IMG/VR virus record: IMGVR_UViG_2516653058_000003
Span: 8,875 to 72,874 of that record
DNA length: 64,000 nucleotides
Source of the DNA: a virus
Lineage: Duplodnaviria > Caudoviricetes
Strand: one strand, 5' to 3'
Under the pieces are notes generated by a model, which saw only the letters and a program-made list of their open reading frames with translations, was not told the DNA's origin and searched no databases. The translations under genes were made by a program, and so were the position numbers. Shown here in pieces: positions 21,031-63,781 of this stretch (within the stretch, counting starts at the first letter, position 1; every line of letters starts with the position of its first letter).

Positions 21031-21046
21031 TGTCCCAGCACGGGCA
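21031..21046 (+). promoter_or_regulatory. CAGCAC-loop hairpin element
   Basis: TGTCC-CAGCAC-GGGCA; ACCGGAGAC at 21085. Confidence 0.55.
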
Positions 21047-21303
21047 GAGGTCGCGTCCGTAAGGGCGGAGGCCCTGCACTTTCAACCGGAGACACCGATT
21101 TTTAGATGCGGGCAAATAGTAACGGAGGTTTTTATGTAAGTCAACAAAATGTTGTAAACGACCAAATGTAACATTCAAAAACCCCGCCATGTATGGCGGG
21201 GGCGCCGTGTCAATACCGCAAGGAAGGTGTTTCAAAAGCACCTGCCAGCACGCCGCCTGCCTCAGTGGGGGTTTGCGGGAATAGATTGGGGACGGCATAC
21301 CCT

Positions 21304-21325
21304 GGGCGCACCTGCGCCCTTTTTT
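21304..21325 (+). terminator. Intrinsic terminator
   Basis: GGGCGCA-CC-TGCGCCC-TTTTTT. Confidence 0.55.
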
Positions 21326-21345
21326 ATGAGACAAAGGAAAAAACT

Positions 21346-21930
21346 ATGTTAACTATCAGAAATGTAGGCATCACGGAGGCGGACGGCCTTTATTGCCTGA
21401 ACGATTTGCACAAGGCCGGCGGGGGCGAGGAACGCCACAAACCTGCCAACTGGCTGCGCACCCAACAGGCCATCGAACTGGTGGCCGTTTTGGAGGCGGA
21501 GGCCGGAAACGCTAAGTCATTGATTTCAGCCGTTTCTCATATTCGAGCAACGGAACAAAATCAAATACTTACAGTTATTCAAGGTGGGGTCAGTTCCCAA
21601 CAAGGCACCTTCGTCTGCAGGGAGCTGGTCTATGCTTACGCGACGTGGGTGTCGCCGGTGTTTTTCCTCCACGTATTAAGGGCTTACGACGCTTTGATAC
21701 AGGCGGGGACGGTAGTCCCTGATGAATGTGGCGATAACGTGGCCGCGCTGCAGCGGGCGCTGGTGTCAATGACGGAGCGGACCGACAGGCATGATATGGA
21801 ATACCGGCGGATATTGGCGCTGTCACAGGGAAATTATAACTTTGCCCACAGCAAACTCATTGTCGTCGAAGAATTACGCAAACAAATCAACCTGTTGCAT
21901 GAAACCATACGGCAGATGGGCAGAAAGTAG
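21346..21930 (+). CDS. KilA-N domain protein (antirepressor-like)
   Basis: DGLYCLNDLHKAGGGEERHKPANWLR…GTFVCRELVYAYATWVSP; AAAGGA RBS before MLTIRN. Confidence 0.85.
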   Translation: MLTIRNVGITEADGLYCLNDLHKAGGGEERHKPANWLRTQQAIELVAVLEAEAGNAKSLISAVSHIRATEQNQILTVIQGGVSSQQGTFVCRELVYAYATWVSPVFFLHVLRAYDALIQAGTVVPDECGDNVAALQRALVSMTERTDRHDMEYRRILALSQGNYNFAHSKLIVVEELRKQINLLHETIRQMGRK

Positions 21931-21946
21931 CCTGTCACTGTGCCTT

Positions 21947-21978
21947 AGCCCCGGCGCCAATAGGCCACGGGGCTTTTT
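21947..21978 (+). terminator. Intrinsic terminator after the KilA-N gene
   Basis: AGCCCCG…CGGGGCT-TTTT. Confidence 0.65.
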
Positions 21979-22146
21979 ATGCCTGCCATATAGGCAGTAG
22001 CGGAGGTAACCTTATGAAAAGAATGGCGATCCCTAACGATGAGCTGAAAGTGCTGAGGGCTGAAAACCGCCTGAAGGCAGCCCTGTATTTCTTCAGCATC
22101 GTTTTCATCGCGTCGGTGATGGCGCTGGCGTTTGTCGGGGGCTGAC

Positions 22147-22404
22147 ATGGGGGCTTATGAAGAGATAGAGGCGCTGGTGGAGGCGTGCGACGACGTGGCC
22201 GCAGGGCAGGCGGGGCCAAGGGCGCTGGGGTTCCAGTACGGGTGGCTTAGGGGTGAGTTCAAGCACGTCCTGCGTGACCTGGGGCTGACAGAAGGGCAAG
22301 TGGCTAAAGTGGCTGAAATGGCCGAAAAACGGCGTTTAAAGGCGGTTATGCTGGCGACTGGTGAGGAGCGGGCGTTCGGGTGGGACAACAGGGCCAAGCG
22401 GTAG
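22147..22404 (+). CDS. Hypothetical protein
   Basis: 85 aa from MGAYEE; GC-rich codon usage like its neighbours. Confidence 0.55.
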   Translation: MGAYEEIEALVEACDDVAAGQAGPRALGFQYGWLRGEFKHVLRDLGLTEGQVAKVAEMAEKRRLKAVMLATGEERAFGWDNRAKR

Positions 22405-22410
22405 TGTTTG

Positions 22411-22468
22411 TTTCCGCAGGTTGGTAGCAGCGTACACCCAGCACGGGTAGGGGCTGCCTCTGCGGAAA
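22411..22468 (+). promoter_or_regulatory. Long CAGCAC-loop hairpin element
   Basis: Outer stem TTTCCGCAG/CTGCGGAAA, middle GCAGC/GCTGC, loop CAGCAC at 22439. Followed by a variant ACCAGAGAC with no ORF. Confidence 0.65.
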
Positions 22469-23116
22469 CTCCCAGCTTTGCAGTGTTCGGGCACCAGAGA
22501 CGGGACCCCGACACTGTTGTCAAGCAGTGAAAAGTATAAACTACTTTCTGTAGAAATCAACAAAATGTAACTTACAGAAGATAAAGATCAACTATAAATA
22601 CTAATATAACTATTATTTAGTATATTTTTATTGTTTATTAGTGTTTTTTGTCATTTTGCTTTGTTAGTGGCCCTATGTATTTTTTTCATAGGGGTCGGGG
22701 TTGCGATTTTGTTGTTACCTCAACTATATAACCCTCACCCTGAAAAACTGAGATATAGGGACTCTAACAAAGGAAATCGACAAAAACACTAATAATGCCA
22801 GCGGATTATCAACCGACAGCGCCATAAAAAACCAAAACCCACCCAAAACCCCACCTTTAACATTTATTGTAAACCAAACAAACAACAATAAATCTGCCAA
22901 AAACGCCCACGAAAACACCACCCGCAAGGCATAAAAAAGCCCCGTAAAGTACCCTTTCCGAGGCCAAATTCAGTAAACTGCATGCGCAGTTTACCAATTT
23001 TTGGGTATTATGTCAAGAAAAAGATGCAATTTTACACCTTGAAAAACACACTTTTTCTGCTTATTATTAGTGTTAAAATAGTAAAACACTAATGAAAACC
23101 CCAAAAAACAGGTGTT

Positions 23117-23276
23117 TCATTAGTGCTAAAGTAGTAGTCACTATTATGAAAACCCCGGAAAGCGACATCTCTTCGTTTTATACACTTGCAAAACGCAAGC
23201 TACAAAATGTCAAAAACGAAGAGATGTAGCTTTCTGTATAGGTTTCTAGTAGTGACCACTATTTTAGCACTAATGA
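23117..23276. repeat. Imperfect inverted repeat with ~63-bp arms in an AT-rich non-coding region
   Basis: TCATTAGTGCTAAA…ACATCTCTTCGTTTT (23117-23179) pairs with AAAACGAAGAGATGT…TTTAGCACTAATGA (23213-23276). Confidence 0.9.
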
Positions 23277-23384
23277 CGGACATATTATTAGTGCTATATT
23301 ATTGTTCATTTATAAGTGTTTCACTGTTATAGCTCTAATAATGTATAATCACAGTTTTATAGAGTCTTAAAAAGGTATTGAAAT

Positions 23385-24986
23385 ATGTCAAAAACTTTTA
23401 AAGGAAGAGCACCTTCCATCCTGCTGACGGCAAACGGACATACCCGTAACATTATGGAGTGGGCCGCCATTGTCTCCCCGGAAGACCCCCAACGGGCTGA
23501 ATTTGTGATCCGTGACCGGTACCAAAAAAGACGACGCCGGAACAGCCCGGTCACGGATGCCCAGGTCATTTATGGCCTGAGCTACCAAAGCACGGAAGAG
23601 ATGCCGATGGAGATGGGTCTGCCGCGCTTGTGCAGGATGTGGGTGCTGGAGGCGATGGACTTGGTGATGCCGCAGGTCGAGGAACACCTGTCCATGCGGA
23701 TGGCGGCATACCTGTCACAAAAGCACGGGACCCCGCCGCCTGGGGAATTCATCACGACCGATAAGTCTCTGCCTGCCAAGCGCCCAAAACCCAAACTAAA
23801 CCCAGTCCCAGGCGTAAACCCGTCCACGCCCGCCCTGAAGGTTGTCATGGATTGGCTAAAGGCGAACAACCTCGACGACCCTTTAATCGGGGACAACTAC
23901 CGGTCCGCCCAGCTGCTGATGATGTGCCAGGCCGACGAGCCGACGCCGGAGCTGTTGGCGTGGCATTTCGCCCTGCTGGATGAGACAGGCCTGTCCGCCC
24001 CCGTACCGGAAATCAAAAAGGAATTGCCTTACAAAACTGCAACCAAACACCAGGAGGAGTGGTGGGAACCTTACATCAAAACCCGCTACATCATTGACGC
24101 GTTCAAGGACGGCAGGGAGCCAGACCCGTTCACGCCAACGGACAACGCCGACACCCTCACCGAAGAGGAGGAAATGGAACTTGAAGCCCCTGCCTACACC
24201 CAAGAGTTCTGCCGGTCGTCGAAGGCACATGTCAATGAGGTGGTAGACCGCCGCTTCCTGAAGTCCCAGAACGAATACCTGTGCCTGATGCATAACAAAC
24301 AGGCCATAGACCGTCTTGACGGGCCGTCAGGCACCCAGGACGGGTTTGTCAAGTTCCTGAACTTTGCGTTTTTCGACATAGGGTTCCGGTGCGTGTTGCA
24401 GATCAGCGATTTCAGGACGTTGAACCGGGCGCAGCACGTCTATTTTCTGTCCGCCCTGTGCCGTAAGTTCAAGGCGTCGTTTGTGGGCAGGAACACCGAC
24501 CTCTGCGACAGCCTGTTGGAAAAGCTGTCCGAGTGGGGGCTTAACCCCCTGCCGCTGTCGCAGCTGCATAGGCACCCGTTGCTGTGCCACTTGCATTCAC
24601 GGGGCAACGAACAAGTGGCCGCTTCGCTTAAGCCATTGCTGGATTATGCGGACAGGCAGGGGCTGGATTACAACACCTACCAATATTGGGCGACTTTGGA
24701 TCACTACGAACACGAAACCCTGATCGACTTGGACCCTCTGTTCATCCCTGCAGAAATCAGGGAATCCGACAAGTACCAGGGGATATTGGACTCCTTGGTT
24801 GCCGCCACGAACTATGGCCGGAACATGGCCATGTGGCCGGAAGGGGTGGTGGCACCGAGGCCGGACATGGTGCCGTGCGACCTGTACGACGACCCCATAA
24901 AAGGCTACGATTACACCGTTTTCGACGGGGCGCCGTTGCTGGTTGACGGGTCCCATACGTTTGTTGTCTTGGAGGGGGTGGGGTGA
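23385..24986 (+). CDS. Large hypothetical protein (533 aa)
   Basis: Long ORF with coherent codon usage; TATAAT at 23344 upstream; N-terminal LTANGHTRNIMEWA motif; no family recognised. Confidence 0.8.
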   Translation: MSKTFKGRAPSILLTANGHTRNIMEWAAIVSPEDPQRAEFVIRDRYQKRRRRNSPVTDAQVIYGLSYQSTEEMPMEMGLPRLCRMWVLEAMDLVMPQVEEHLSMRMAAYLSQKHGTPPPGEFITTDKSLPAKRPKPKLNPVPGVNPSTPALKVVMDWLKANNLDDPLIGDNYRSAQLLMMCQADEPTPELLAWHFALLDETGLSAPVPEIKKELPYKTATKHQEEWWEPYIKTRYIIDAFKDGREPDPFTPTDNADTLTEEEEMELEAPAYTQEFCRSSKAHVNEVVDRRFLKSQNEYLCLMHNKQAIDRLDGPSGTQDGFVKFLNFAFFDIGFRCVLQISDFRTLNRAQHVYFLSALCRKFKASFVGRNTDLCDSLLEKLSEWGLNPLPLSQLHRHPLLCHLHSRGNEQVAASLKPLLDYADRQGLDYNTYQYWATLDHYEHETLIDLDPLFIPAEIRESDKYQGILDSLVAATNYGRNMAMWPEGVVAPRPDMVPCDLYDDPIKGYDYTVFDGAPLLVDGSHTFVVLEGVG

Positions 24987-24991: not shown

Positions 24992-25138
24992 TATATTTAG
25001 AAATGGCCGCGTCGTCTAGTGGTTAGGGCATGGGTACTTGGAAACGTCGGTTCGAATCCGACTTAATCGTCTAGCGGCCTAGGACACCAGACCGCCGAAA
25101 CGCAGGTTCGAACCCTGTCGCGGCCATTTTTAAATATA
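24992..25138 (+). ncRNA. tRNA-mimic RNA with two D/T elbows, one extended acceptor stem and no anticodon arm
   Basis: Acceptor GGCCGCG/CGCGGCC; D-arms at 25014-25029 and 25069-25085; T-arms GTCGG-TTCGAAT-CCGAC and GCAGG-TTCGAAC-CCTGT; 20-bp closing helix. Confidence 0.75.
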
Positions 25139-25629: not shown

Positions 25630-25647
25630 CCAAGGCAGCACACTTGG
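25630..25647 (+). promoter_or_regulatory. CAGCAC-loop hairpin element
   Basis: CCAAG-G-CAGCAC-A-CTTGG upstream of ATG 25673. Confidence 0.55.
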
Positions 25648-25966: not shown

Positions 25967-26019
25967 TCCCTTATTCCCCGCCACGGATGGCTCCCTTTGT
26001 TTAAAGACCGGAGACACCC

Positions 26020-26679: not shown

Positions 26680-26686
26680 TCAGCCT

Positions 26687-26714
26687 ACAAACCCTTCCGG
26701 CACGAGGGGTTTGT
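26687..26714 (+). promoter_or_regulatory. Hairpin element, variant loop CGGCAC
   Basis: ACAAACCCTTC-CGGCAC-GAGGGGTTTGT; ACCGGAGAC at 26747. Confidence 0.75.
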
Positions 26715-26761
26715 GGGGTGGATTAGCCACCATTTCAATTTAACAAACCGGAGACAAACTT

Positions 26762-27190: not shown

Positions 27191-27285
27191 GGCCTTGCCG
27201 GTCTCCTGACCAGCCTATAACCCATTCATTTGTTCGAGTGGGTTATGGGGTGGGAAACACCGATAACTTAACATAGGAGATATTT

Positions 27286-27426: not shown

Positions 27427-27462
27427 CGTTACTTTTAATCGCTAACCGGAGACAGAAAACTA

Positions 27463-28225: not shown

Positions 28226-28238
28226 CCAGACAGCCATC

Positions 28239-28252
28239 GCAGCAGCACCTGC
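28239..28252 (+). promoter_or_regulatory. CAGCAC-loop hairpin element
   Basis: GCAG-CAGCAC-CTGC; ACCGGAGAC at 28265. Confidence 0.65.
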
Positions 28253-28277
28253 TTTGGACTGTTAACCGGAGACAGTT

Positions 28278-29174: not shown

Positions 29175-29192
29175 ACCCCTCAGCACAGGGGT
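29175..29192 (+). promoter_or_regulatory. CAGCAC-loop hairpin element
   Basis: ACCCCT-CAGCAC-AGGGGT; ACCGGAGAC at 29207. Confidence 0.8.
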
Positions 29193-32081: not shown

Positions 32082-32111
32082 CCCCAACTTCAACAGCACT
32101 TGAGGTTGGGG
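32082..32111 (+). promoter_or_regulatory. CAGCAC-loop hairpin element
   Basis: CCCCAACTTCAA-CAGCAC-TTGAGGTTGGGG; ACCGGAGAC at 32117. Confidence 0.85.
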
Positions 32112-32421: not shown

Positions 32422-32506
32422 GCACTCCAACCCCTGCCCAAGCTATCCAAATAGCCAAAACCCGCCGGACGTGTACACCACAGACCCAACTGACATTCAA
32501 GAATAA

Positions 32507-34600
<2,094 letters not shown>

Positions 34601-34622: not shown

Positions 34623-34653
34623 GCAACCACCTTTCAGCACAAAAGGTGGTTGC
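34623..34653 (+). promoter_or_regulatory. CAGCAC-loop hairpin element
   Basis: GCAACCACCTTT-CAGCAC-AAAAGGTGGTTGC; ACCGGAGAC at 34660. Confidence 0.85.
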
Positions 34654-35730: not shown

Positions 35731-35874
35731 AAGGAGATTTTATGGGCGCACCACACCCTCAATGCCTTTGACGTGTACCCAAACCTGAACCATCCCAATC
35801 GGCACAAGTATGCGCAAGAACCTGTCACTTTACCGTCTAAGTCCGAAGTTTTAATCGAAGAACAGTAACCCCAT

Positions 35875-35906
35875 GGTCACCATTTTTCAGCACAAAAATG
35901 GTGGCC
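35875..35906 (+). promoter_or_regulatory. CAGCAC-loop hairpin element
   Basis: GGTCACCATTTTT-CAGCAC-AAAAATGGTGGCC; ACCGGAGAC at 35913. Confidence 0.85.
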
Positions 35907-35927
35907 AATCTAACCGGAGACATACCT

Positions 35928-37562: not shown

Positions 37563-37586
37563 ACCAACCCTCAGCACAGGGTTGGT
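37563..37586 (+). promoter_or_regulatory. CAGCAC-loop hairpin element
   Basis: ACCAACCCT-CAGCAC-AGGGTTGGT; ACCGGAGAC at 37596. Confidence 0.85.
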
Positions 37587-39347: not shown

Positions 39348-39378
39348 TGATCCCCGGTGCAGCACACACTGGGGATCA
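39348..39378 (+). promoter_or_regulatory. CAGCAC-loop hairpin element
   Basis: TGATCCCCGGTG-CAGCAC-A-CACTGGGGATCA; ACCGGAGAC at 39382. Confidence 0.85.
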
Positions 39379-45142: not shown

Positions 45143-45267
45143 ATTCCCAAAACAATAACCGGAGACAACAAATCCAGGCTAGTAACAATTGAACCCAGCA
45201 CACCACACCCGCAAAGGACGGGTTATTTAATCCTTTACCGTAATTTTTTAACAACTGGAGACACAAA

Positions 45268-46092: not shown

Positions 46093-46109
46093 CCCACTGA
46101 TACCCCTAC

Positions 46110-46135
46110 CCCCTACACCCAGCACGGTGTAGGGG
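46110..46135 (+). promoter_or_regulatory. CAGCAC-loop hairpin element
   Basis: CCCCTACACC-CAGCAC-GGTGTAGGGG then AGTTTT; ACCGGAGAT at 46148. Confidence 0.85.
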
Positions 46136-46161
46136 AGTTTTACATTAACCGGAGATAATTA

Positions 46162-49100: not shown

Positions 49101-50892
49101 CGACATCAACCCCCTGCTGGAAGGTCTGGGAATACCAAAACTGGAAGCTGGGACCGACGCGTTGCAAGGTTATAAGCTAGCCGATTTTTTGAAAAAACAG
49201 CAACTGGTTTCTGACTGGGCAAAGCCTTACATGTCCAACTCTCCCGAAGCGGCCACATTCTTACGGTTGTTGGTGCCTGCTGTAGCTTACAACGACACCG
49301 CCAAAACCAAACTCGCTAAAGGTGAAGGGCGTGCCCACCAGGTCTATAAAGAATGGCAGGAATATGCAAAAACCTTGAGGGGAGAGAAGGTGAAAGTGTC
49401 CTCAACCGGGTTCGAAATGAACCTTAACTCCCCCCTGCAAATGAAAGCGCTGCTGTACGGCATGTTTGACTTGCCTGCCCGTTTACGTGGTTTCGAAATC
49501 AGCGACACCCGCAAGGCGTTGGGTCTGGTAACCCCCACCATCCAAGCCAATGAAGATGCCATAGTCACGGCATTGGCGGAAGACTGTGCAGACCATTCCT
49601 GGAAAAAAGAAGCCTTGGAAGCGTTAATGGCGGCGAAAAAATGCCAAACCCGTATCAGCATGTTTTACGACGTTTATCCAAAATGGCAACATCCCGTTGA
49701 CGGGCTAATCCACCCTCAGGTTAACAGTTGTGGGACAGAAACCAGACGCCCTACGGGTTCGTCCCCCAACCCACTACAATGGCCTAAGCGAGGGGACGGG
49801 GTTAAGTTTCGTAACTGCATCCTACCTAACGAAAAGTTGGGTCACGACCTGATTGTGTCAATAGACTGGAGCCAGCAGGAGCTTCGTATTGCGGCGGCCT
49901 TGTCGATGGATGAAGCCATGCTGGATTGTTATATTGGGAAGGATGTCGAACATGTAATATCTGGCGACGTGGAGGCGTTGCTGGGCGAAGCCCTATTGTC
50001 TAGGTTCCTTAAAACAAGCACGAAAGACATCCACACCCAAACCGCATCAGGTCTGTTGAAGTGGGCATACGATGATGTGGTGGCCGCGTTATCTGGAGAT
50101 GATAAAACCCTAGCTAAGACTGCTAAGGATGCGCGTGTTACGTCGAAACCCATCAATTTCGGGGGCACCTATGGTATTGGTAGCGGCAAGCTTGCCAGGC
50201 AGTTAATTTGCCCTATCACAGAGGCCAAACAATATTTGGCAGATAAAAAAGCGCTGTATCATGGGTTTGAGCGTTGGCGTGAAAACGTCATCAACCTCGT
50301 CTGCCAGCAAGGGTTTGTCACCACTGCCTTCGGCAACCGCCGCCATGTGTTCGACCAGATTACCACCCAAGACGAAGGGCTATGGGCATCTGTCTGCCGC
50401 CAAGTGGTGAACTACCTTATCCAAGGAGTTTGTGCCGATAACTTGAAGCGCACGATGACCGCTATCCGGCAGCAAGGCATAACACAACGCACTGGTGCGG
50501 TGCTTATAGCTCCGATCTACGATGAGTTGGTGTTCTCAGTACACAGCAGCAATGCGGTTGACTTAATCATGAATGTCCACAGCATCATGACCAGGGATAT
50601 ACCAGGAATGGCGGTGCCGATGTTGGCTGAGCCTTCCTTGGGGATCAACTTTGGGGTGCAGGTAGAAATCGGGGCGTTCCCGACACCTGAAAAAATCGAA
50701 TCGGCAATGTCTAAGGCTTTTGCTGTGCCACGGCAGTTGTGGGTTCATTATGGGTCGGATTCCTATATCGAAACCCATGACTTACGGGATCTCAAACACT
50801 TAGCGGAAGTGCCTGAAGACTTGTATGACGTGACGGATATACCGGAGCATGAAGAACGGTTTAAACAGCAAATATTACAAGTAGCCGCTTAA
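46162..50892 (+). CDS. polA: Family A DNA polymerase (5'-3' exonuclease + 3'-5' exonuclease + polymerase) with an intein
   Basis: FEN motifs YPEYKANR, EADD and GDSSDNYGGVKGVG; ExoI DWET; ExoIII YGADD; motif A DWSQQELR; motif B KPINFGGTYG; motif C YDE. Confidence 0.95.
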   Translation: MNIKTLFDLRGMVIHALNASTDREPITLPSGEKANSVGHCLNNFIEMYLLPTIQETRLNDIIAVRDGGNEYRKALYPEYKANRAGKDPELSIHHSNCVNAVIDLLKGLGIPVAEIPGVEADDILAYLVEKLPGPKMIYTVDQDLLQLSSPDCLVFLKTQINTDGYALYNCSGSSKQLLMTVHPRHVALLKSIVGDSSDNYGGVKGVGPVAFAKLAEVYGLDGLDELCSIISKDGYATLQEVINQTGDKTLVALFERRDEWKLGWNLANLAPQLVGERKTTKFNNIIWTKRLPSPERVNRILAEHGCGYLYPKLKPVLPTKTLITADNMPPLSRFESAFKQSEVIAVDWETTDYLQHQPFRDATKGREFVDMLSAKLTGSGFTFGRNYEHTIYVSYDHADTNNLPRETLLDLLGVIPDESVIAIQNCLPGDVEVLTRDGWACIKDTNCSQEIMQWDSTTGELSFAHPTQKVEADADTLLKWDTLYHSCTYTPEHRMYFQSNHCFPKWKAEPCKQVSEYHPNTVYIPLAGIYNHPSVQLTEAEARLLEAIRADGHFPVNRSKQIKFHFIKQRKIDRLLELCREAGIETVVVKETDGSVRVTLQSSSLVGKFRSLLGVERRYTKTLVLSLDIKAREYILDEVKFWDGGSVYKKGAHFYSIDVETVDAIQLMAHISGWRCSGSWGGNKKGYGLLNGKNIFRGTLYPRSRAKLMQTPVEVPHNGKVFCFSVPSGAFMVRSKGKIHITGNCMFENTVLRCNFNGAFLTNCHDTKVMASYVDENQPAGLKDRALLHLNYRQTHYGDVIAKGKTMSDYSAEHVFQYGADDPLVTAHLYDFYKMIMQIEGTFDFCVANEMEPIEMISEGFIAGVSVDWDELERQGIEDRKTLDESIVKIRELIVANQTEETIESGVDRIYSEDVEEVVARVNTDFKAGKFNGLADPAELVRDREISAKSIALRKKLEGLVTYQPYVETSVDAAIDMTPSDINPLLEGLGIPKLEAGTDALQGYKLADFLKKQQLVSDWAKPYMSNSPEAATFLRLLVPAVAYNDTAKTKLAKGEGRAHQVYKEWQEYAKTLRGEKVKVSSTGFEMNLNSPLQMKALLYGMFDLPARLRGFEISDTRKALGLVTPTIQANEDAIVTALAEDCADHSWKKEALEALMAAKKCQTRISMFYDVYPKWQHPVDGLIHPQVNSCGTETRRPTGSSPNPLQWPKRGDGVKFRNCILPNEKLGHDLIVSIDWSQQELRIAAALSMDEAMLDCYIGKDVEHVISGDVEALLGEALLSRFLKTSTKDIHTQTASGLLKWAYDDVVAALSGDDKTLAKTAKDARVTSKPINFGGTYGIGSGKLARQLICPITEAKQYLADKKALYHGFERWRENVINLVCQQGFVTTAFGNRRHVFDQITTQDEGLWASVCRQVVNYLIQGVCADNLKRTMTAIRQQGITQRTGAVLIAPIYDELVFSVHSSNAVDLIMNVHSIMTRDIPGMAVPMLAEPSLGINFGVQVEIGAFPTPEKIESAMSKAFAVPRQLWVHYGSDSYIETHDLRDLKHLAEVPEDLYDVTDIPEHEERFKQQILQVAA
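47437..48393 (+). mobile_element. Intein with LAGLIDADG-type homing endonuclease (319 aa)
   Basis: Starts CLPGDVEVLT; block B TPEH; LLEAIRADG; ends VFCFSVPSGAFMVR…HITGN followed by Cys. Confidence 0.92.
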
Positions 50893-51165: not shown

Positions 51166-51194
51166 TCGACAATCCGCGCAACTTACCTTATATT
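51166..51194 (+). promoter_or_regulatory. Sigma70-like promoter
   Basis: TCGACA-N17-TATATT, 13 nt upstream of a CAGCAC hairpin. Confidence 0.6.
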
Positions 51195-51207: not shown

Positions 51208-51240
51208 TCCGGCATGGTTGACAGCACCTTCCATGCCGGA
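51208..51240 (+). promoter_or_regulatory. CAGCAC-loop hairpin element
   Basis: TCCGGCATGG…CAGCAC…CCATGCCGGA; ACCGGAGAC at 51247. Confidence 0.8.
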
Positions 51241-53108: not shown

Positions 53109-53132
53109 AGGCTGCCGCAGCACCGGCAGCCT
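53109..53132 (+). promoter_or_regulatory. CAGCAC-loop hairpin element
   Basis: AGGCTGCCG-CAGCAC-CGGCAGCCT then TTT; ACCGGAGAC at 53143. Confidence 0.85.
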
Positions 53133-54260: not shown

Positions 54261-56423
54261 ATGTTAAAACAACTCACATTAAACAACTTCAAAAAACATA
54301 AAGCACTGGCCTTATCGTTCCCCGGTGGTCTAACCTCTATCACTGGCAACAATGCGGCAGGCAAGTCCACAGTTTTAAAAGGCATTTTATTCGCCTTATT
54401 CGGATCTGCTGCCATCGGGGCAAAGGATCACATTTGGTCTTGGGGTTCCAAGGACAAGCGCAGCGTAGCGCTTCAAATGACCCTGCCTGTTTACGGCGAC
54501 GTGATTATCAGCCGCACCCCTTCAGGGGCCACTGTCACTGCCGTTGACGATGGCCGTAACCTGGCCAGCGGCAACGCTGCCGGAACCCAGTTTATTGAGG
54601 CGTCTTTGGGGATGTTGGCGAAAGATTTGAAAACTATTACATATTCTCCCCAAGGAGAAACACAAAATATCCTGACGATGGGGCCAACAGCATTACAGCA
54701 GAAAGTGGAAGGTTTGAGCCGTGTCGATATATTGGACAGGGTGTTAAGCCACCTCAGTACGGATCTGACGAAAATTGAAGGCCGGTTGGAAGGTATTCCA
54801 GCTGATTTTGACATTACCGGGTTGGAGACGCGACTCCAGATATTGTCTGATAAAAAAAGAAAAACTGAACAGGACATCGCGGTTTCTGTAGGCATTAAAG
54901 ACAACCTTACCGACCAGCGAACCCTTGTCGAGAGAGATACTAAAACCTTACAAGAGCACCAGCACCAGCACCAGCTGCTAAGCGCCGAACTTTTTCGTGA
55001 AGAACAAAACGTGGCTAATCTATGGCAACAGGTGACCGTAGCTATGGGTAACCTTAACTCACTCGAAGGTGCAGGCAACCCGGTGGATATCGAAGAGCTG
55101 AAGTTTGAATATTCAGCCAGTAAAGCCTCGTATGACGAGGCGGCCCGATATATGCATAAGCTAAATGCGGAGGCGTCCGAGCGGCAACAATGCCGTAATG
55201 ACATTGAGAGGTATACCAAACTTCTTGAAGAACACACAGCGGCTGAGGAGGAATTGAATACACTACAACCAGTAATTGCGGAAAAAGGCTCAAAACATGC
55301 CACATTAGCCAGTGAAAAATCCACAGTGGAATCGGATTTACGTCGCGTCGAGGAGATGCTGCATAACGCCAAATGCCCGGTCTGTAAGAGAAACTTTGAC
55401 GGGGTTAATTTTGACGAAATATCTCTGGAAGCCCAAAAGTTGTCCGTAAGGTGGCAAACCCTAAATACAGAAGCATCTGCCCTATGGGTGGAGTATACGG
55501 CGTTGGGCAACCAGGAAAAAAACTTAAAAAAGAGCCTCAACCCCGGCGCCGCCGCTTACCTTGATGCCCGCCGCACCCGGCTTGCTGAGATACCGGAAGT
55601 TTCGGAATCAGCAATGGCTGAGGCTTTGACCCACGTTGAAAAATTGGCAATGGCTACTAACGCCTTAGTAGCCGACATAAACTCAACCACGGCCACCCTT
55701 GCCAGAATCTCAGAAATTGAAAAGCAGGTGAAGGGGCTGGAAGCCCAGCTACACGCAGCCACCTTGAAAGTGGCCACGGTGTCGGATAAGTTAAATGCCG
55801 TCCCAGACACGTCAGCCATCCCCTCATTACAAGAGTACATCACAGAGCTGGATATGAGGCTGTCCAAATGTGAACAGCAAATCCAGGACTACCGTTTGGA
55901 AATCTCCCGCTGTGATTCAGAAATCGGACATACGAAGACCGAACTGTTCAAGCTGAAACAATTGGAAGCCGAAAGACAAGAACTGGACAAAGAGCAGTCC
56001 CATCTGCAGTCTTTCCAAAAATACCTAAAAGGCAACCGCAGCAAGTGGGCAGGGGATATCTGGGAGGGGTTGCTGCAATATGCGTCAGCCCTAGTATCCA
56101 ACACGACTAGCGGCGAGCTGGGCAACCTGGCCCGGTCTTCTAAAGGCGAATTCACGGTTGAGGAGTTGGGCAGGGTTGTGCCGGTGGAGGAGTCGTCAGG
56201 GTTTCAGAAATCGCTGATCGGTACCGCCCTTCGAGTGGCCTTGTCGAAAGTGTTTTACGGAGACAACTTATTTTTGCTGTTAGATGAAGCGACGGCAGAT
56301 GCCAACGACGAGAACGCCGCCGCCGTGGCAGGTATGTTGGCTTCCTTGAATATGCAAGTCGTAATGGTCAGCCACCGCAGTGGGGATTCTGTGAATGCTG
56401 GGAACTTGGTGGAGTTGAAATAA
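54261..56423 (+). CDS. sbcC: SbcC/Rad50-like SMC ATPase
   Basis: GNNAAGKST, long coiled coil with CPVC hook, SSGFQ signature, LLDEA and H-loop. Confidence 0.92.
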   Translation: MLKQLTLNNFKKHKALALSFPGGLTSITGNNAAGKSTVLKGILFALFGSAAIGAKDHIWSWGSKDKRSVALQMTLPVYGDVIISRTPSGATVTAVDDGRNLASGNAAGTQFIEASLGMLAKDLKTITYSPQGETQNILTMGPTALQQKVEGLSRVDILDRVLSHLSTDLTKIEGRLEGIPADFDITGLETRLQILSDKKRKTEQDIAVSVGIKDNLTDQRTLVERDTKTLQEHQHQHQLLSAELFREEQNVANLWQQVTVAMGNLNSLEGAGNPVDIEELKFEYSASKASYDEAARYMHKLNAEASERQQCRNDIERYTKLLEEHTAAEEELNTLQPVIAEKGSKHATLASEKSTVESDLRRVEEMLHNAKCPVCKRNFDGVNFDEISLEAQKLSVRWQTLNTEASALWVEYTALGNQEKNLKKSLNPGAAAYLDARRTRLAEIPEVSESAMAEALTHVEKLAMATNALVADINSTTATLARISEIEKQVKGLEAQLHAATLKVATVSDKLNAVPDTSAIPSLQEYITELDMRLSKCEQQIQDYRLEISRCDSEIGHTKTELFKLKQLEAERQELDKEQSHLQSFQKYLKGNRSKWAGDIWEGLLQYASALVSNTTSGELGNLARSSKGEFTVEELGRVVPVEESSGFQKSLIGTALRVALSKVFYGDNLFLLLDEATADANDENAAAVAGMLASLNMQVVMVSHRSGDSVNAGNLVELK

Positions 56424-57028
56424 TGGCAACACTTTATGAAACATTAGGCGTTAATAAAGATGCCACCCCTGTCCAAATCAAAGCAGCTTACCGCAGCAAA
56501 GCCAAACAACACCACCCAGACAAAGGCGGTGATGAAGCCCTATTCAAACAAGTCAAAGCCGCTTACGAAGTGCTGAGTAACCAAGCCCGCCGCAAGCAGT
56601 ATGACGAAACCGGGCAAGTCGATGACACGGAACTTCAAGATGAAGCCCGCCTCAGGCAAGAGCTGATCCAACTTATCCTGGGAATCCTTGACCAAGTGCT
56701 TGATGTTGACGGTACCGATGTCGTTAAGATGGCGAGACGAGATCTTAACACGGTTATCCGGCGTAACCGAGAAGCAATACGGACCGCGAACAATAAGGTA
56801 AGCAAGTATCAGCGGGCATTGTGCCGGATGCGTTGCGACTCCGGCGAAAACCTTCTGGCTATTGGAATACAAAACCATATTGATATCGGGTTGGTGTATA
56901 TCAAAGGTATTGAAAAAACCATCGAAGGTATAGAAAAACAACTCATGATGCTGGATTCATATATATATGACACGGAATCACATGGGTATGGGCATTATGT
57001 AACACTAACTCTGACACTGGGGGTATAA
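56423..57028 (+). CDS. J-domain (DnaJ-like) protein
   Basis: LYETLGV…IKAAYR…HHPDKGGD…AYEVLS…RKQYD. Confidence 0.9.
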   Translation: MATLYETLGVNKDATPVQIKAAYRSKAKQHHPDKGGDEALFKQVKAAYEVLSNQARRKQYDETGQVDDTELQDEARLRQELIQLILGILDQVLDVDGTDVVKMARRDLNTVIRRNREAIRTANNKVSKYQRALCRMRCDSGENLLAIGIQNHIDIGLVYIKGIEKTIEGIEKQLMMLDSYIYDTESHGYGHYVTLTLTLGV

Positions 57029-57214: not shown

Positions 57215-57237
57215 AATAAATTAACCGGAGACAAAAT

Positions 57238-58404: not shown

Positions 58405-58428
58405 CCGGAAGCCCAGCACGGCTTCCGG
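58405..58428 (+). promoter_or_regulatory. CAGCAC-loop hairpin element
   Basis: CCGGAAGCC-CAGCAC-GGCTTCCGG; ACCGGAGAC at 58437. Confidence 0.85.
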
Positions 58429-60262: not shown

Positions 60263-60884
60263 AGGAAGCTACTGGAACTGCCGGGTTATTGAACACAAAG
60301 GGGAGTATCCTTGGTTTGGTATCCATGAAGTTTACTACGATGCTGGTGGGGGTGTTACCGGAATTACTGAAAATCCCGTACAGCTAGTACAGGGTTCGGT
60401 GGACGACCTACAAGATGAGATACATAAACTTAAAATGGCGTTTGAAAAGCCAGTGTTGGATTATGCAGCTTGTGCAGATGTAAGTAAAACCTGTGACAAC
60501 CTGTCCAGGGACGAACGGCAAAAAGTCGTACTGGGTTGGGCTATAGACACTTTTGGGGAATTAACGGCCACCTCTCTTACAGAGAGGGCAGCGAGGTTCA
60601 CTGAAGAGGCGTTGGAGTTGGCGCAGGCAGTGGGGCTGAGCCAGAACCATGTGATAAACATCCTCAACTACGTTTATGGCCGGCCTATTGGCGACACCGC
60701 CCAAGAGATTGGCGGGGTGGCGGTGTCTTTAATGGCATTGGGGGAGCGGCTTCGTTTGTCGATAGATGAGTGTGAGCGTCATGAATTAAACCGTATCCTG
60801 GCAAAAGACCCTAAGTTTTTCCGGGAAAAACAAAACTCGAAAGCAGGTGCCGGGGTGGCTTTGGAGGTGTCCAATGGCAAATAA
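60246..60884 (+). CDS. Two-domain protein with a C-terminal MazG-like domain
   Basis: N-terminal WNCRV…GIHEVYYD module; C-terminal ERAARFTEEALELAQA…QEIGGV. Confidence 0.7.
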   Translation: MMTENKGSYWNCRVIEHKGEYPWFGIHEVYYDAGGGVTGITENPVQLVQGSVDDLQDEIHKLKMAFEKPVLDYAACADVSKTCDNLSRDERQKVVLGWAIDTFGELTATSLTERAARFTEEALELAQAVGLSQNHVINILNYVYGRPIGDTAQEIGGVAVSLMALGERLRLSIDECERHELNRILAKDPKFFREKQNSKAGAGVALEVSNGK

Positions 60885-61068
60885 ACGCGTCCTTTCCGAA
60901 AAAGCCGCCGCCAACCTGGAATACAGCAAAGACAAACGCAAGCGCCGCCGCGAGCACCGGTGCCGGGCCAGGTCCATCCTGAGAGGTGAAGTTCCTTTCC
61001 GGTTGTGGGATGGCCAGACCCTGTACGACAAAGCCCGCTGGCATATGATGCAAGCCAAATACCTTTAA
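60874..61068 (+). CDS. Small basic protein
   Basis: GGAGG RBS before MANKRV; 64 aa. Confidence 0.5.
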   Translation: MANKRVLSEKAAANLEYSKDKRKRRREHRCRARSILRGEVPFRLWDGQTLYDKARWHMMQAKYL

Positions 61069-61081
61069 TTGGAGAATTGAG

Positions 61082-61270
61082 ATGGAAGAATTAAGACAAA
61101 CAATCGAGATTAGCTTACTGCGACGTATCGAGCAGGCCACAACAGGGGCGGAGTGCGCCACAGCTGTGATGAATTACAAACACTTCAGAGAAGCTTTAGC
61201 GATAGTACCGACTCCGTCGGTGATACCTTCCATATTTCAAAACACTTTAAACACCTTGCAAGACCCTTAA
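61082..61270 (+). CDS. Small hypothetical protein
   Basis: GGAG RBS; 62 aa. Confidence 0.5.
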   Translation: MEELRQTIEISLLRRIEQATTGAECATAVMNYKHFREALAIVPTPSVIPSIFQNTLNTLQDP

Positions 61271-61280
61271 GAGTGTAACC

Positions 61281-61308
61281 ACCCTCCAACCCAGCACGGT
61301 TGGAGGGT
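61281..61308 (+). promoter_or_regulatory. CAGCAC-loop hairpin element
   Basis: ACCCTCCAACC-CAGCAC-GGTTGGAGGGT then TTATTTT; ACCGGAGAC at 61323. Confidence 0.85.
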
Positions 61309-61335
61309 TTATTTTGATAAAGACCGGAGACATTA

Positions 61336-61596
61336 ATGAATGAACGTATAGAACTAAACGAAGAAGCTGTAACCACCATCACTGTAGCTTCCGCTATCTG
61401 CTCAGTAATCCTAGGTATAGCAGGAATGTTCTGCTACAGCAGTGTAAATTCCACAAATGGCCAACAGGCTTTGATTGCTAAAGCCATCCAAGCCGGAAAA
61501 TCTCCGCTGGAAGCCAAGTGCGCCTCGATGTCCTCACCAGGGGAAGATAAAGCGTGCTTGCTGGTAGCAGCAGCTGGGGTAGGGGCACAGCAATGA
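61336..61596 (+). CDS. Small membrane protein
   Basis: One TM segment plus a Cys pair. Confidence 0.65.
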   Translation: MNERIELNEEAVTTITVASAICSVILGIAGMFCYSSVNSTNGQQALIAKAIQAGKSPLEAKCASMSSPGEDKACLLVAAAGVGAQQ

Positions 61597-61934
61597 AACG
61601 GATCATTATAACCACTTTGTTATTATTGCCTGTAGTATCTGACGCGAGTTGCCGCAGTGCCACGCAAAAGCACCACTTCGATGTCCAGCAAGGTTACCCC
61701 TATGGCCGCAAAGGCTACGTGGTTGACCATATCTGCCCTTTGGAGCAAGGCGGGGTCGATGCGCCAATCAACATGCAATACCAAACTATTGCCGAAGGGA
61801 AGGCGAAAGACCATGGTCGTGGGGCAGTTGGGGAGTTGACCCCTGAAGGCAGGAAACTGTACTGCAATGCCACGAACTCCACCCCAACCCGTCAGGTATT
61901 CAATTGTAAAGGCCACAACGGAGGCGACCAATGA
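61593..61934 (+). CDS. HNH-type nuclease with a signal peptide
   Basis: [18 protein letters not shown] leader; [20 protein letters not shown] motif. Confidence 0.75.
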
Positions 61935-62710
61935 AACAATATTTAGATCTATTGCAAGAGTTGCTAGATAGCGGCAACCAAAAAGGCGACCGTACTGGCA
62001 CTGGAACGCTTTCTAAGTTCGGTCATCAGATGCGGTTTGATTTGTCGAAGGGTTTTCCCTTAGTGACGACGAAGCGGATCCACATGAAGTCGGTGATTCA
62101 CGAGTTGCTGTGGTTCCTTAAAGGCGACACCAATATCAAGTACTTGAATGACAACGGTGTCCGAATTTGGGATGAGTGGGCTGACGAAAATGGGGATTTG
62201 GGACCAATCTACAGTGAACAGTGGCGTAACTGGGACGGATGTATTGACCAAATTGCCGACACGATTGCCGAAATCAAACGCAACAAAGACTCCCGTCGCC
62301 TTGTTGTCACTGCATGGAATCCATCGGATGCCCATAAGGTAAAGCTACATTGGTGTCATTGCCTATTCCAATTTTACGTCCACAACGGCAAGTTATCCTG
62401 CCAACTCTACCAACGTTCGGCGGACACGTTTTTAGGGGTTCCGTTTAATATTGCCAGCTACGCTCTCCTTACCCACATGATTGCCCAACAATGTGACCTA
62501 GACGTTGGGGAGTTTATTTGGACTGGAGGAGATACCCATCTGTATTTGAACCACATCGAACAGGCTAAACTGCAGCTAACCCGTGACCCTCAGCCATTAC
62601 CAAAACTGGTCTTGAACAAGGCCGACTCAATAGACGACTACAAGCCTGAGGACTTCGTCATTTCCGGGTACATCCCTTATGACGCCATTAAGGCGGAGGT
62701 GGCGGTATGA
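61931..62710 (+). CDS. thyA: Thymidylate synthase
   Basis: [25 protein letters not shown] (catalytic Cys), YQRSAD and GVPFNIASY. Confidence 0.97.
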
Positions 62711-63159
62711 TGGTTTATCAAGGTGAAAATTCAAAGCACTGCGTGGCGGCGTGTATTGCCACAATCCTTTGCTGTACCCTTGAAGAAATATTATCCACAG
62801 CGGCAGGTTTGGGAATCAACCCGGATATAGGGATGTCAGGGGTGGATGAATTAAGGGTGTTGGCGCAGTTAGGTTGGGAAAATAATATCGTTCAGGTTTC
62901 CAGCCTTACCAACCAACTCATCCTTGGCCGAACATATCTGTTAACTGTGCCGTCTCTAAACACCAGAGGTGGCATACACCGTATCGTTGCCAAAGCCAAA
63001 GCGGATCAAACATTTGAAATACATGACCCGTGCCCATCTGGATTACGGTATGGTATAGACCATCCCCTAACAGGCTGGACAGAGGTCACCGAATTTGTTG
63101 GGGCAAATGTGTGGCCTGATGAGGCAACTGATCATAAGATGGGGGATGGTAATTTATGA
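62707..63159 (+). CDS. Papain-like (C39-type) peptidase candidate
   Basis: Q…CVAACIA, H-x-IV and IHDP motifs. Confidence 0.55.
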
Positions 63160-63749
63160 GAGTGCCCATAAACCCAAACAAATTCGCCCGCATTGGTCAG
63201 GCACTGTGCCCACAGCTACCTATCCCCAAACCGGTAGCGGTGTCAATGATCGTGGCCATCGGCCAAAACCATGTCATCGGTGTAGACGGGAAACTGCCTT
63301 GGCACATCCCGGAAGACCTGAGACGATTCCGGTATATTACGGACGGGGCTGTCGTTGTGATGGGGAGAGCCACTTGGGAATCTCTCCCATCAAAGCCATT
63401 AAAAAATCGGCTAAACATTGTGCTGTCCAAAGAGTGTCTTGAACCGTTCACGGCAAAGATATTGCAGCCGTTGTCTATACAGTGTATGGACATTCATAGT
63501 GTGTTTATGTATGCCGAAACTTTCGCTCCAGGTAAAGAAATATTTATTATCGGGGGAGCACAAATATATGACGCTTGGTGGCCGTATGTGACCAAGGTGT
63601 ACTTAACTGAAGTAAGTAAGGAGATACCTAGAGGGGGTGCCACTACAAAATACAGGATGCCTAGGGATTTCAAGACATGTTTTATGGTGGTAGCGCGGGA
63701 CTGGTGGGGTGATTGCGCCTTTTCCGTTTGGGAAAGGGCTAACAGATAA
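63156..63749 (+). CDS. folA: Dihydrofolate reductase
   Basis: IGVDGKLPWHIPEDLRRF, VVMGRATWES, PLKNRLNIVLS and IFIIGGAQIY. Confidence 0.95.
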   Translation: MRVPINPNKFARIGQALCPQLPIPKPVAVSMIVAIGQNHVIGVDGKLPWHIPEDLRRFRYITDGAVVVMGRATWESLPSKPLKNRLNIVLSKECLEPFTAKILQPLSIQCMDIHSVFMYAETFAPGKEIFIIGGAQIYDAWWPYVTKVYLTEVSKEIPRGGATTKYRMPRDFKTCFMVVARDWWGDCAFSVWERANR

Positions 63750-63759
63750 TTCACATATC

Positions 63760-63781
63760 CCCGCCGGCAGCACCTGGCGGG
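63760..63781 (+). promoter_or_regulatory. CAGCAC-loop hairpin element
   Basis: CCCGCCGG-CAGCAC-CTGGCGGG; ACCGGAGAC at 63787. Confidence 0.85.

Follow-up and report, generated by a model that had tools for sequence, protein, structure and literature searches.

Which molecule carries the signal of a hairpin whose loop is fixed and whose stem is free, and which step of phage gene expression does it control? This question is raised by an integrated siphovirus prophage of about 77 kb in a gammaproteobacterium with a genome of 4.69 Mb. The window, i.e., the 64,000-nucleotide stretch that was analyzed and to which all coordinates refer, contains the 43-kb replication arm of this prophage (21000-64000). 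The structural arm is 30 kb.

A hairpin family with a fixed loop

The initial annotation listed about 18 intergenic hairpins with the loop CAGCAC. All 18 loops are present, one of them as CGGCAC (26698). Folding gives 15 clean or strong hairpins and three weaker or irregular ones (21036, 22439 and 25636), and gives no hairpin at 45196 or 50907, which had been counted as weak copies. The family members and the elements that follow them are:

21031..21046, + strand, weak hairpin, 5-bp stem, CAGCAC 21036; ACCGGAGAC 44 nt downstream (21085)
22417..22462, + strand, weak, irregular member, CAGCAC 22439, 2 bp closing the loop, then bulges; no 9-mer after it
25630..25647, + strand, weak hairpin, 5-bp stem, 8-nt loop gCAGCACa; at the end of a doubtful 62-aa ORF
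26684..26717, + strand, 14-bp hairpin, variant loop CGGCAC 26698; ACCGGAGAC 26747, ATG 26762
28229..28263, + strand, bulged hairpin, CAGCAC 28243; ACCGGAGAC 28265, ATG 28278
29175..29192, + strand, 6-bp hairpin, CAGCAC 29181; ACCGGAGAC 29207, ATG 29222 (DUF932 gene)
32082..32111, + strand, 12-bp hairpin, CAGCAC 32094; ACCGGAGAC 32117, ATG 32131
32500..32535, + strand, hairpin (core 32508-32529), CAGCAC 32516, then U-tract; ACCGGAGAA 32539, ATG 32552 (NAD-dependent DNA ligase)
34623..34653, + strand, 12-bp hairpin, loop CAGCACA 34635; ACCGGAGAC 34660, ATG 34674
35874..35907, + strand, 14-bp hairpin, CAGCAC 35888; ACCGGAGAC 35913, ATG 35928 (DUF4942 methyltransferase)
37563..37586, + strand, 9-bp hairpin, CAGCAC 37572; ACCGGAGAC 37596, ATG 37613
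39348..39378, + strand, 12-bp hairpin, loop CAGCACA 39360; ACCGGAGAC 39382, ATG 39395 (29-aa leader ORF before primase)
46108..46138, + strand, 10-bp hairpin, CAGCAC 46120, then U-tract; ACCGGAGAT 46148, ATG 46162 (1576-aa DNA polymerase A)
51208..51240, + strand, hairpin with internal loop, CAGCAC 51222; ACCGGAGAC 51247, ATG 51259 (RNase T-like exonuclease)
53109..53132, + strand, 9-bp hairpin, CAGCAC 53118, then UUUU; ACCGGAGAC 53143, ATG 53156 (SbcD-like)
58405..58428, + strand, 9-bp hairpin, CAGCAC 58414, then U-rich tail; ACCGGAGAC 58437, ATG 58449 (dATP/dGTP diphosphohydrolase-domain protein)
61281..61308, + strand, 11-bp hairpin, CAGCAC 61292, then U-tract; ACCGGAGAC 61323, ATG 61336
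63760..63781, + strand, 8-bp hairpin, CAGCAC 63768; ACCGGAGAC 63787, ATG 63800

The family is real and far beyond chance. On the + strand of positions 21000-64000, 11 CAGCAC loops are closed by a stem of 5 bp or more; 300 dinucleotide shuffles gave 0.09 on average and never more than 2. Among the 163 hexaloop hairpins whose stem reaches 6 bp, CAGCAC is the loop of 10, and the next commonest loop occurs in two. If only stems of 6 bp or more are counted, the + strand of the whole genome holds 17 CAGCAC hairpins, 10 of which are inside the arm, and the 14 CAGCAC hairpins found elsewhere in the genome are at chance level (about 11 expected). A search of the prophage minus strand for such hairpins (stem of at least 6 bp) found none, and the structural arm, as had been noted, has no CAGCAC hairpin on either strand.

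Stem and loop are conserved in different ways, and here the earlier description was accurate. The 5' arms are 30% identical in pairwise comparison, while the loop is invariant in 17 of the 18 hairpins. Pairing holds at 7.5 of 8 positions between cognate arms, compared with 3.4 of 8 between non-cognate ones, and the four Watson-Crick pair types are all found at every stem position. These data support selection of the stem for pairing alone and of the loop for its sequence. The 5' arms are rich in C (60 C versus 17 G) and the 3' arms rich in G. Seven isolated non-Watson-Crick positions in the stems could be wobble pairs, and on the + strand each of them is G.U rather than A.C; thus one strand, the sense strand, is read, most likely as RNA. 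G.T is the least bad mismatch in single-stranded DNA too, which tempers this argument; RNA is the favored rather than the proven form. Since the family is strand specific and intergenic, is limited to the replication arm and does not occur in the host, the loop must be read on a single strand, in agreement with the loop-reading factor that had been proposed.

The hairpin is part of a ribosome-binding module

The hairpins stand in a module with a constant order: upstream stop codon (mostly UAA), hairpin, extended Shine-Dalgarno box ACCGGAGAC, and ATG. The gap from stop codon to hairpin is 1-20 nt and that from box to start codon 3-8 nt. Loop and box are about 16-20 nt apart regardless of stem length (standard deviation 2.9 nt; stem length versus linker r = -0.68, permutation p = 0.006), and the hairpin ends before the box in all cases. 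Given this constraint, some 26-38 nt separate the loop from the AUG, and the loop sits close to the 5' edge of the 30S footprint. On its + strand, the 4.69-Mb genome has 25 copies of the box. The replication arm contains 18 of these, with GGAG at the correct Shine-Dalgarno spacing for the downstream ATGs, between flanks that cannot form pairs with the 16S tail of the host. Twelve matches to the combined motif are present in the prophage-bearing genome, and none of 400 genomes from the same order has more than two. Distant relatives (23-32% identity) show no fixed-loop hairpin family and give no comparative support; closer relatives exist (primase identity 37-58%). Five or six boxes of the ACCGGAGAC type have no hairpin. 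Boxes of this kind and a degenerate module include:

26007..26015, + strand, ACCGGAGAC without CAGCAC hairpin, 4 nt before ATG 26020
27445..27453, + strand, ACCGGAGAC without CAGCAC hairpin, before ATG 27463 (TerB-like)
57224..57232, + strand, ACCGGAGAC without hairpin, before ATG 57238; gap to the upstream gene only 23 nt
45158..45267, + strand, degenerate module: ACCGGAGAC 45158 without start codon, unpaired CAGCAC 45196; in its 3' part an ordinary terminator-like hairpin (45207-45223) and one-mismatch box ACTGGAGAC, followed by ATG 45268

The genes within a block of the replication arm overlap or abut and have ordinary GGAGG sites, which indicates that they are translationally coupled. Each block of coupled genes opens with the module, which is used by genes that follow a gap. 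Therefore, the module marks every site in the arm that needs a fresh ribosome start. The primase (GTG 39488) is reached through the module-headed 29-aa leader ORF, which ends 3 nt before the GTG. The structural arm and the immunity region have ordinary terminators and ordinary Shine-Dalgarno sites, and the intergenic hairpins of the structural arm have UUCG and UUAAUU loops. The initial annotation contained neither the tie of the hairpin to the box nor its place at block heads. It had the hairpins heading transcription units; what they head are blocks of coupled genes. The fixed distance and the position at the heads of coupled blocks point to translation initiation over transcription. We tentatively suggest that the module works as an RNA operator: it would be read at the loop and would coordinate the initiation of translation de novo.

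In no fold does the hairpin sequester the Shine-Dalgarno box, and there is thus no sign of a simple occlusion switch. The boxes that work alone, with no hairpin, and the four to six hairpins that resemble genuine terminators also count against the operator. The box is kept single-stranded and the linkers are G-poor. These features would suit open initiation sites under a purely structural insulator, in which the hairpin, with no trans-acting factor, shields the ribosome-binding site or aids coupling across the gap, and the loop is uniform by common descent or gene conversion. However, the stems have diverged to random-level identity around an invariant loop, and gene conversion would need longer stretches than six and nine bases. 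Common descent with no selection acting on the loop is thus very unlikely, and we give the insulator hardly any credence.

The hairpins could instead be punctuation in early messages, marking cuts or the stops of 3' exonucleases, with the loop as the site for an endoribonuclease or a protective protein and only an indirect effect on translation. Hairpins that directly follow stop codons, keep to one strand and have covarying stems fit this equally well, and most of the hairpins are without a U-tract, like stabilizer hairpins. Still, it explains neither the constant linear distance across different stem lengths nor the coupling to a special box, and the only phage RNase recognized is the RNase T-like exonuclease domain. 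We consider this explanation unlikely.

Possible transcription and single-stranded DNA signals

The hairpins had been compared with three transcription signals of other phages, and none of these precedents carries over. RNA polymerase was said to be lacking in the window, and we find none encoded in the whole prophage: there is no PF00940 match, the tape measure protein has no RNA polymerase motif or PDB match, and there is no other giant orphan protein. Promoters of the N4 virion RNA polymerase also combine a specific-loop hairpin with a conserved sequence a measured distance downstream. Their hairpins have 5-7-bp stems and 3-nt loops, whereas those of the prophage have stems of 4-15 bp and a 6-nt loop, and no phage polymerase to serve. 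The PeSL cassettes of T4-type phages are likewise repeated between small early genes and join a stem-loop to an expression signal. As Arbiol and colleagues reportedly described in 2010, PeSL carries a host sigma-70 early promoter and its stems are conserved enough to provide recombination homology. In contrast, the prophage hairpins have unrelated stems and no associated sigma-70 promoter. The lambdoid nut site, with boxA and the boxB hairpin that N protein reads, shares a hairpin with loop-borne specificity beside a conserved linear element, on nascent RNA from early operons of a temperate phage. However, we found no boxA and recognized no N-family protein; there are 15-18 copies, one per block head, rather than one per early operon, and the linear partner is a Shine-Dalgarno box instead of boxA.

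Conditional termination deserves separate attention. Here, a loop-binding antiterminator or pro-terminator, boxB-like but acting locally, would split the arm into transcription units. U-rich tracts had been seen after only some hairpins, and four (32508, 46110, 58405 and 61281) indeed pass a terminator scan, where they are the four best terminator-like matches on the + strand. Two more have short U-runs, and an arginine-rich stretch of the 64-aa protein P0024 presumably resembles N-type peptides. GC-rich stem-loops at gene ends are also typical of intrinsic (Rho-independent) terminators, which have no loop-sequence requirement. Yet 12 of the 18 hairpins have no U-tract, so that the idea fits at most four to six of them and not the rest. 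The ordinary terminators of the same phage bear other loops, boxA is missing, the sites number more than 15 instead of one or two near promoters, and the fixed distance to the box is left unexplained. Conditional termination is therefore a doubtful explanation, and distinctly unlikely for the family.

A signal in single-stranded DNA would be a + strand hairpin, extruded or on the lagging-strand template, from which a polymerase (the 953-aa primase-helicase of the phage or an unrecognized RNA polymerase) starts at a measured distance within ACCGGAGAC. Hairpin-read starts are used elsewhere by RSF1010 RepB' at ssi sites, by G4-type origins and by the N4 virion polymerase. An AT-rich repeat region at about 22.5-23.4 kb is a candidate origin. 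The constrained distance, with the hairpin always before the box, is what a start-site ruler would give, and all copies would be on the lagging template of a fork leaving these repeats. Against this, two copies are left of the candidate origin, the prophage has no RNA polymerase, the box is a correctly spaced Shine-Dalgarno sequence, and the structural arm, which needs priming too, has no copies on either strand. We regard such a signal as very unlikely.

A proposed loop reader and its possible role

The closest analogue is the SAS/ESAS pair of cluster K mycobacteriophages. SAS is an asymmetric, extended ribosome-binding box, GGGATAGGAGCCC, a few nucleotides before start codons (2011, PMC3203893; Adephagia study 2024, PMC11373665). 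ESAS has conserved 17-bp arms around a variable spacer and is now interpreted as a SigA promoter plus an operator (PMC3203893; PMC11373665). Both systems place an extended box, in a single orientation and with flanks unable to pair with 16S rRNA, before the start codons of 11-19 genes. Both are restricted to the non-structural arm of a temperate siphovirus whose host is essentially without copies, and in both an inverted-repeat element precedes about half or more of the boxes. The boxes differ (ACCGGAGAC versus GGGATAGGAGCCC), as do the host phyla. In ESAS the arms are conserved and the spacer varies; in the prophage the loop is constant and the arms vary freely, with no host-type promoter. 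Thus, what is recognized upstream of the box in the prophage is a folded strand rather than duplex DNA.

The reader ORFs proposed in the initial annotation (18673, 19646, 21346 and 23385) have no known RNA-binding fold. ORF 18673 is an Xre-like repressor, ORF 21346 is a KilA-N DNA-binding protein, and ORFs 19646 and 23385 have no recognizable domain. A search among the proteins of the arm found no recognized RNA-binding domain, and no complementary RNA loop was found. Two arginine-rich orphan proteins are speculative candidates, as leads only:

60874..61068, + strand, P0024, 64-aa basic orphan protein with arginine-rich stretch KDKRKRRREHRCRAR
23385..24986, + strand, 533-aa orphan protein, arginine-rich near residue 42-53

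For the RNA operator, we infer both a trans-acting factor and translation initiation as the controlled step. The hairpins would be cis-acting RNA elements in the spacers between the gene blocks of early/replication messages, and a sequence-specific factor would bind the exposed CAGCAC loop. The lack of such hairpins in the host makes a phage-encoded factor probable. The factor could hold or release the hairpin beside the ribosome landing site and so switch the translation of all block heads together, and through coupling the switch would reach the whole replication and nucleotide-metabolism regulon. Another possible role of the factor is to protect the message at the hairpin or to mark it there. 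If this is true, one factor controls the replication gene blocks of the phage together.

A fixed-loop hairpin family in the replication arm

The plus-strand replication arm of this virus (window ~21000-64000) carries a family of hairpins with a CAGCAC loop, at 15-18 sites over 43 kb. All the loop positions listed in the initial annotation are correct. Fifteen of these hairpins fold cleanly with arms of 4-15 nt, and three (21036, 22439 and 25636) are weaker. At 45196 and 50907, two further sites that had been taken for weak copies, the hexamer is unpaired and forms no hairpin. The arm has 11 CAGCAC hairpins with a stem of at least 5 bp, versus 0.09 (maximum 2) in 300 dinucleotide shuffles. CAGCAC makes up 10 of the 163 hexaloop hairpins in the arm, where the next commonest loop occurs only twice. 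When stems of at least 6 bp are counted across the whole genome, 10 of the 17 plus-strand CAGCAC hairpins lie within these 43 kb, and the minus strand of the prophage has none. Outside the arm, 14 are found on both strands against a chance expectation of ~11. The motif was first described as a feature of the arm, and the comparison with shuffles and the host genome agrees, with far enrichment in the arm and chance level elsewhere.

The stem is selected for pairing and the loop for sequence. Of 8 positions, 7.5 are paired between cognate arms versus 3.4 between non-cognate arms, and all four Watson-Crick pair types are seen at every stem position. The 5' arms share 30% identity, which is the random level, and there is no conservation of the closing pair; the loop does not vary. 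The isolated non-Watson-Crick positions in the stems include seven G.U and no A.C on the plus strand, A.C being what a wobble pair of the opposite strand would give there. In addition, C predominates in the 5' arms (60 C, 17 G) and G in the 3' arms. Because a site in duplex DNA would need neither a palindrome nor strand asymmetry, the functional form is the folded sense strand. The simplest reading is that RNA is the molecule read, with single-stranded plus-strand DNA as the alternative. A priming or start signal on single-stranded DNA would fit the latter, and we consider it improbable.

Two other structures were seen. A 15-bp, G.U-rich "hairpin" with a CGGAGACC loop in the ligase gene (33667) was rejected, as it looks like chance in a conserved coding motif. 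A strong 14-bp hairpin with the loop AUUUGUUC (27214-27249, plus strand) lies in a 272-nt gap 5' of a TerB-like gene. Taken as a whole, this gap has a more stable fold than its shuffles (z = -3.2), and either a small ORF or a structured RNA may be present in it.

The ACCGGAGAC box and the heads of coupled blocks

The hairpin family of the initial annotation stands, though the hairpin is only half of a hairpin-plus-ACCGGAGAC module, and this second half had been missed. The box occurs 25 times on the plus strand of the 4.69-Mb genome, 18 of them in the arm, and heads none of the structural genes. Its variants end in A or T, with one ACTGGAGAC. The box lies 3-8 nt upstream of the start codon. 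Its GGAG falls at Shine-Dalgarno spacing, and its conserved ACC and AC flanks are unable to base-pair with the tail of the 16S rRNA.

Genes that follow a gap have the box, and usually the hairpin too once the gap is at least ~50 nt, whereas a gene overlapping or abutting the one before it has an ordinary GGAGG site. Thus, the module marks the head of each block of translationally coupled genes. That hairpins so placed are insulators working without any factor seems to us very improbable.

The upstream stop codon, mostly TAA, is 11-34 nt 5' of the loop. The box follows the loop at 16-20 nt in 11 of 14 modules (SD 2.9). Longer stems go with shorter linkers (r = -0.68), and a permutation test of the loop-to-box variance gives p = 0.006 for so small a value. 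Since the variance is tight and stem and linker compensate, there is a constraint on where the loop lies, in linear distance, from the initiation site. The end of the loop is 26-38 nt upstream of the AUG, which we take to be close to the 5' border of the 30S initiation footprint, reportedly defined by Huttenhofer and Noller in 1994.

The same spacing can be considered on DNA. Loop and ACCGGAGAC together could form a single-stranded DNA start signal, in which CAGCAC would be read, on the extruded or lagging-strand plus strand, by the 953-aa primase-helicase or by a polymerase not yet recognisable by sequence. Synthesis would then begin the measured 16-20 nt off, within the ACCGGAGAC box. We hold this specific form to be quite improbable. 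If true, one module would serve as priming or transcription start and as ribosome-binding site at every block head.

The primase gene fits the pattern of module-headed blocks, through the following element:

39395-39484, plus strand: leader ORF, 29 aa, headed by a full module (loop 39360)

The primase start, GTG 39488, corresponds to the N-terminus of its 58% homologue and has no box. Since the module-headed leader ORF ends 3 nt before this GTG, the primase seems to be translated by leader-peptide coupling.

A tRNA-like element lies at 25005-25126 (plus strand). It matches the Rfam tRNA model at 36.5 bits, but has 122 nt on a 71-position model, and ARAGORN does not call a tRNA there. It ends ...GGTTCGAACCC...GCGGCCA, directly followed by a ACCGGAGAT box (25139).

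Prophage setting and candidate loop readers

The window corresponds to bases 931684-995683 of a single-contig 4.69-Mb genome with a gammaproteobacterial 16S rRNA, whose 3' tail is the usual ...GGAUCACCUCCUUA. Because an integrase stands at one side and host genes lie at both bounds, the element is an integrated prophage of ~77 kb. Its main features, and the host genes at its right side, are as follows (negative positions lie left of the window).

-11848 to -10832: tyrosine integrase, adjoining the host dus and ferrochelatase genes
1-18530, minus strand: structural genes
18673-19035, minus strand: Xre-like repressor, a 120-aa HTH protein, in the immunity/early region
~19170-19240: TGTGACA/TGTCACA operator-like repeats in a divergent control region, beside the Xre-like HTH protein
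20480-20600 and 21300-21325: ordinary terminators of the immunity/early region
22530-23385: AT-rich stretch of ~850 bp, without a convincing ORF and with several promoter-like matches
46162-50892, plus strand: DNA polymerase A, 1576 aa
52457-53104, plus strand: 215-aa protein with a weak cyclic-nucleotide-binding match (Crp-like?)
56423-57028, plus strand: DnaJ-domain protein, 201 aa
57238-63749, plus strand: nucleotide-metabolism block with MazG-like and dCTP-deaminase-like proteins, ThyA, DHFR and a 435-aa protein with PF18909
From 65045 on: host two-component genes

From ~19.6 kb on, all genes are on the plus strand. The immunity and early region also has a KilA-N protein, and the operator-like boxes with the Xre-like protein are probably an immunity switch. 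The arm encodes NAD ligase, a DUF4942 methyltransferase, the 953-aa primase, an SNF2 helicase, the 1576-aa PolA, an RNase T-like exonuclease, SbcCD and the DnaJ-domain protein. Its nucleotide genes include MazG-like and dATP/dGTP diphosphohydrolase domains, the latter (PF18909) at the C-terminus of the 435-aa protein, as well as the dCTP-deaminase-like protein, ThyA and DHFR. This block may be a sign of a nucleotide pool that is modified or biased; a PurZ-type gene was not recognised. DNA polymerase A has a 5'-3' exonuclease domain (residues 26-232) and a polymerase domain (1061-1497) with ~800 unassigned residues between them, a long form common to its homologues in Lana, PMBT3 and SHOU24. 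The AT-rich stretch, which includes an inverted repeat with a 12-bp stem (23265-23296), is a candidate replication origin. Immediately right of the integrase gene, a ~30-nt sequence (CAAGTCTCCTGTTA.TGTGCTGTCTCCAGA) is present in two direct copies 60 nt apart, at window positions -10288 and -10228 (genome 921396 and 921456). Both copies could be arm-type sites of the integrase.

Among described phages, the nearest are Pseudomonas phages Lana, PMBT3 and UAntarctica and Vibrio phage SHOU24, with a protein identity of only 24-32%. A protein search found primase homologues at 58%, 42% and 37-39% identity, and the related loci in metagenome, viral and genome collections have only 22-35% identity. 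Neither the relatives at 22-35% identity nor phage Lana contain any fixed-loop hairpin family or any CAGCAC hairpins, and megablast against phage records gave no match. The CAGCAC-gap-ACCGGAGAC pattern has only single chance matches among those listed in IMG/VR, and at most 2 per genome in 400 genomes of the same order versus 12 here.

The four ORFs that had been suggested as loop readers encode the Xre-like repressor, the KilA-N protein and two proteins that are orphans. No useful reader match came from searching candidate ORFs in Pfam, PHROG, PDB and Atlas, and no antiterminator was matched in Pfam or PHROG among ~55 ORFs scanned. Arginine-rich stretches are present in the 533-aa orphan (23385-24986) and in a 64-aa protein (60874-61068); these stretches are the only hints of a reader, and on sequence grounds both proteins are candidate loop readers, as leads only.

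Known signals and a possible RNA operator

The module belongs to no named family. A lambdoid nut site is one promoter-proximal site per early operon, and with 15-18 sites over 43 kb the copies are too many. Moreover, boxA (CGCTCTTTA, at most 1 mismatch) has 8 matches versus 10.5 expected, none of them beside a hairpin in the sense-strand nut arrangement; the only ones near a module, 26002 and 61318, overlap the ACCGGAGAC box on the minus strand. Local antitermination at the hairpins is, in our judgement, unlikely.

The initial annotation had noted the absence of an RNA polymerase from the window, and none was recognised when the tape measure and the bounded prophage were examined, so an N4-type hairpin promoter is rejected. 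A polymerase fused to the tape measure exists in Thermus phage P23-45 (PMC10770324). Such a fusion was not found here: the tape measure (2131 aa) matches TMP families only, and has neither a DxDGD-type catalytic motif nor a PDB match. A profile search with PF00940 found nothing in the genome, its controls giving no match either. Sigma-70-like promoters are at or below shuffle level, and only the one at 51166-51194 is near a module. A PeSL cassette joins a host-type early promoter to a stem-loop, and this type is rejected since host-type promoters are not associated with the modules. For a sigma-54-like reading of C(A/G)GCAC, inspection by eye found no GC element at the right distance.

A plain terminator family fits the copies only in part. 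A U-tract follows 4 copies by terminator scan and ~6 by eye, twelve copies have none, and the ordinary phage terminators of the immunity region and structural arm carry other loops. Among the rival explanations, processing or stabilisation at these hairpins ranks first; we judge it possible but not likely. At gathering score, Rfam matched only the tRNA-like element and gave no family for the hairpins. Kissing with a phage antisense or small RNA would require a complementary GUGCUG loop, which was not found: none of the 22 GTGCTG sites on the plus strand of the prophage is in a non-coding hairpin loop. Their flanking stems are mostly 0-3 bp, with a few longer (up to 7 bp) inside genes, and folds place neither 20641 nor 27359 (the latter probably in a small ORF) in a loop. 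The host has CRISPR arrays of 54 and ~87 repeats at ~23364 and ~3724979 of the genome (C1). The repeats are type I-E-like with the hairpin CCCCAC-GGTC-GTGGGG, and mimicry of them is rejected because their loop is GGTC.

The closest analogue of the module is the SAS/ESAS pair of cluster K mycobacteriophages, whose function is still unexplained; ESAS has conserved 17-bp inverted-repeat arms, a variable spacer and SigA-like -35/-10 hexamers, and is now read as a SigA promoter plus operator (PMC3203893; PMC11373665; PMC12699233). Both systems have an extended ribosome-binding box with flanks that do not pair with rRNA, in 11-19 copies of a single orientation. In both, the box is confined to the non-structural arm and missing from the host, and about half of the boxes have an inverted-repeat element 5' of them. 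The SAS box is 3-9 bp before start codons, compared with 3-8 nt before the ATG for ACCGGAGAC. The likeness is one of analogy only, as ACCGGAGAC is unrelated in sequence to the SAS box GGGATAGGAGCCC. The decisive difference is that the arms of the present family vary freely around a fixed loop, which, unlike ESAS, points to a folded strand.

We tentatively suggest that the hairpin module is an RNA operator that governs de novo initiation of translation. Its CAGCAC loop, at the upstream edge of the site where ribosomes land, would be bound by a loop-specific factor. The factor is probably phage-encoded, because the host is without such hairpins. Together with the special Shine-Dalgarno box it would set the initiation rate at each block head, and translational coupling would spread this effect through every block. 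The upstream ribosome, terminating at a stop codon close enough to reach the 5' arm, may unfold the hairpin, and in this way one block would be linked to the next.

Short arm-confined signals that nobody can read recur in phage genomes. SAS/ESAS is the best-known case, unexplained fifteen years after its description, and this prophage is an unusually clean example in a Gram-negative host. Its about 15 independent copies amount to mutagenesis already done by evolution, with a free stem, a fixed loop and partner box, and constrained spacing, and this natural variation renders the question directly testable. A loop-reading factor, if real, would be a compact global switch for the phage replication genes, and would provide a portable pair of RNA operator and regulator.
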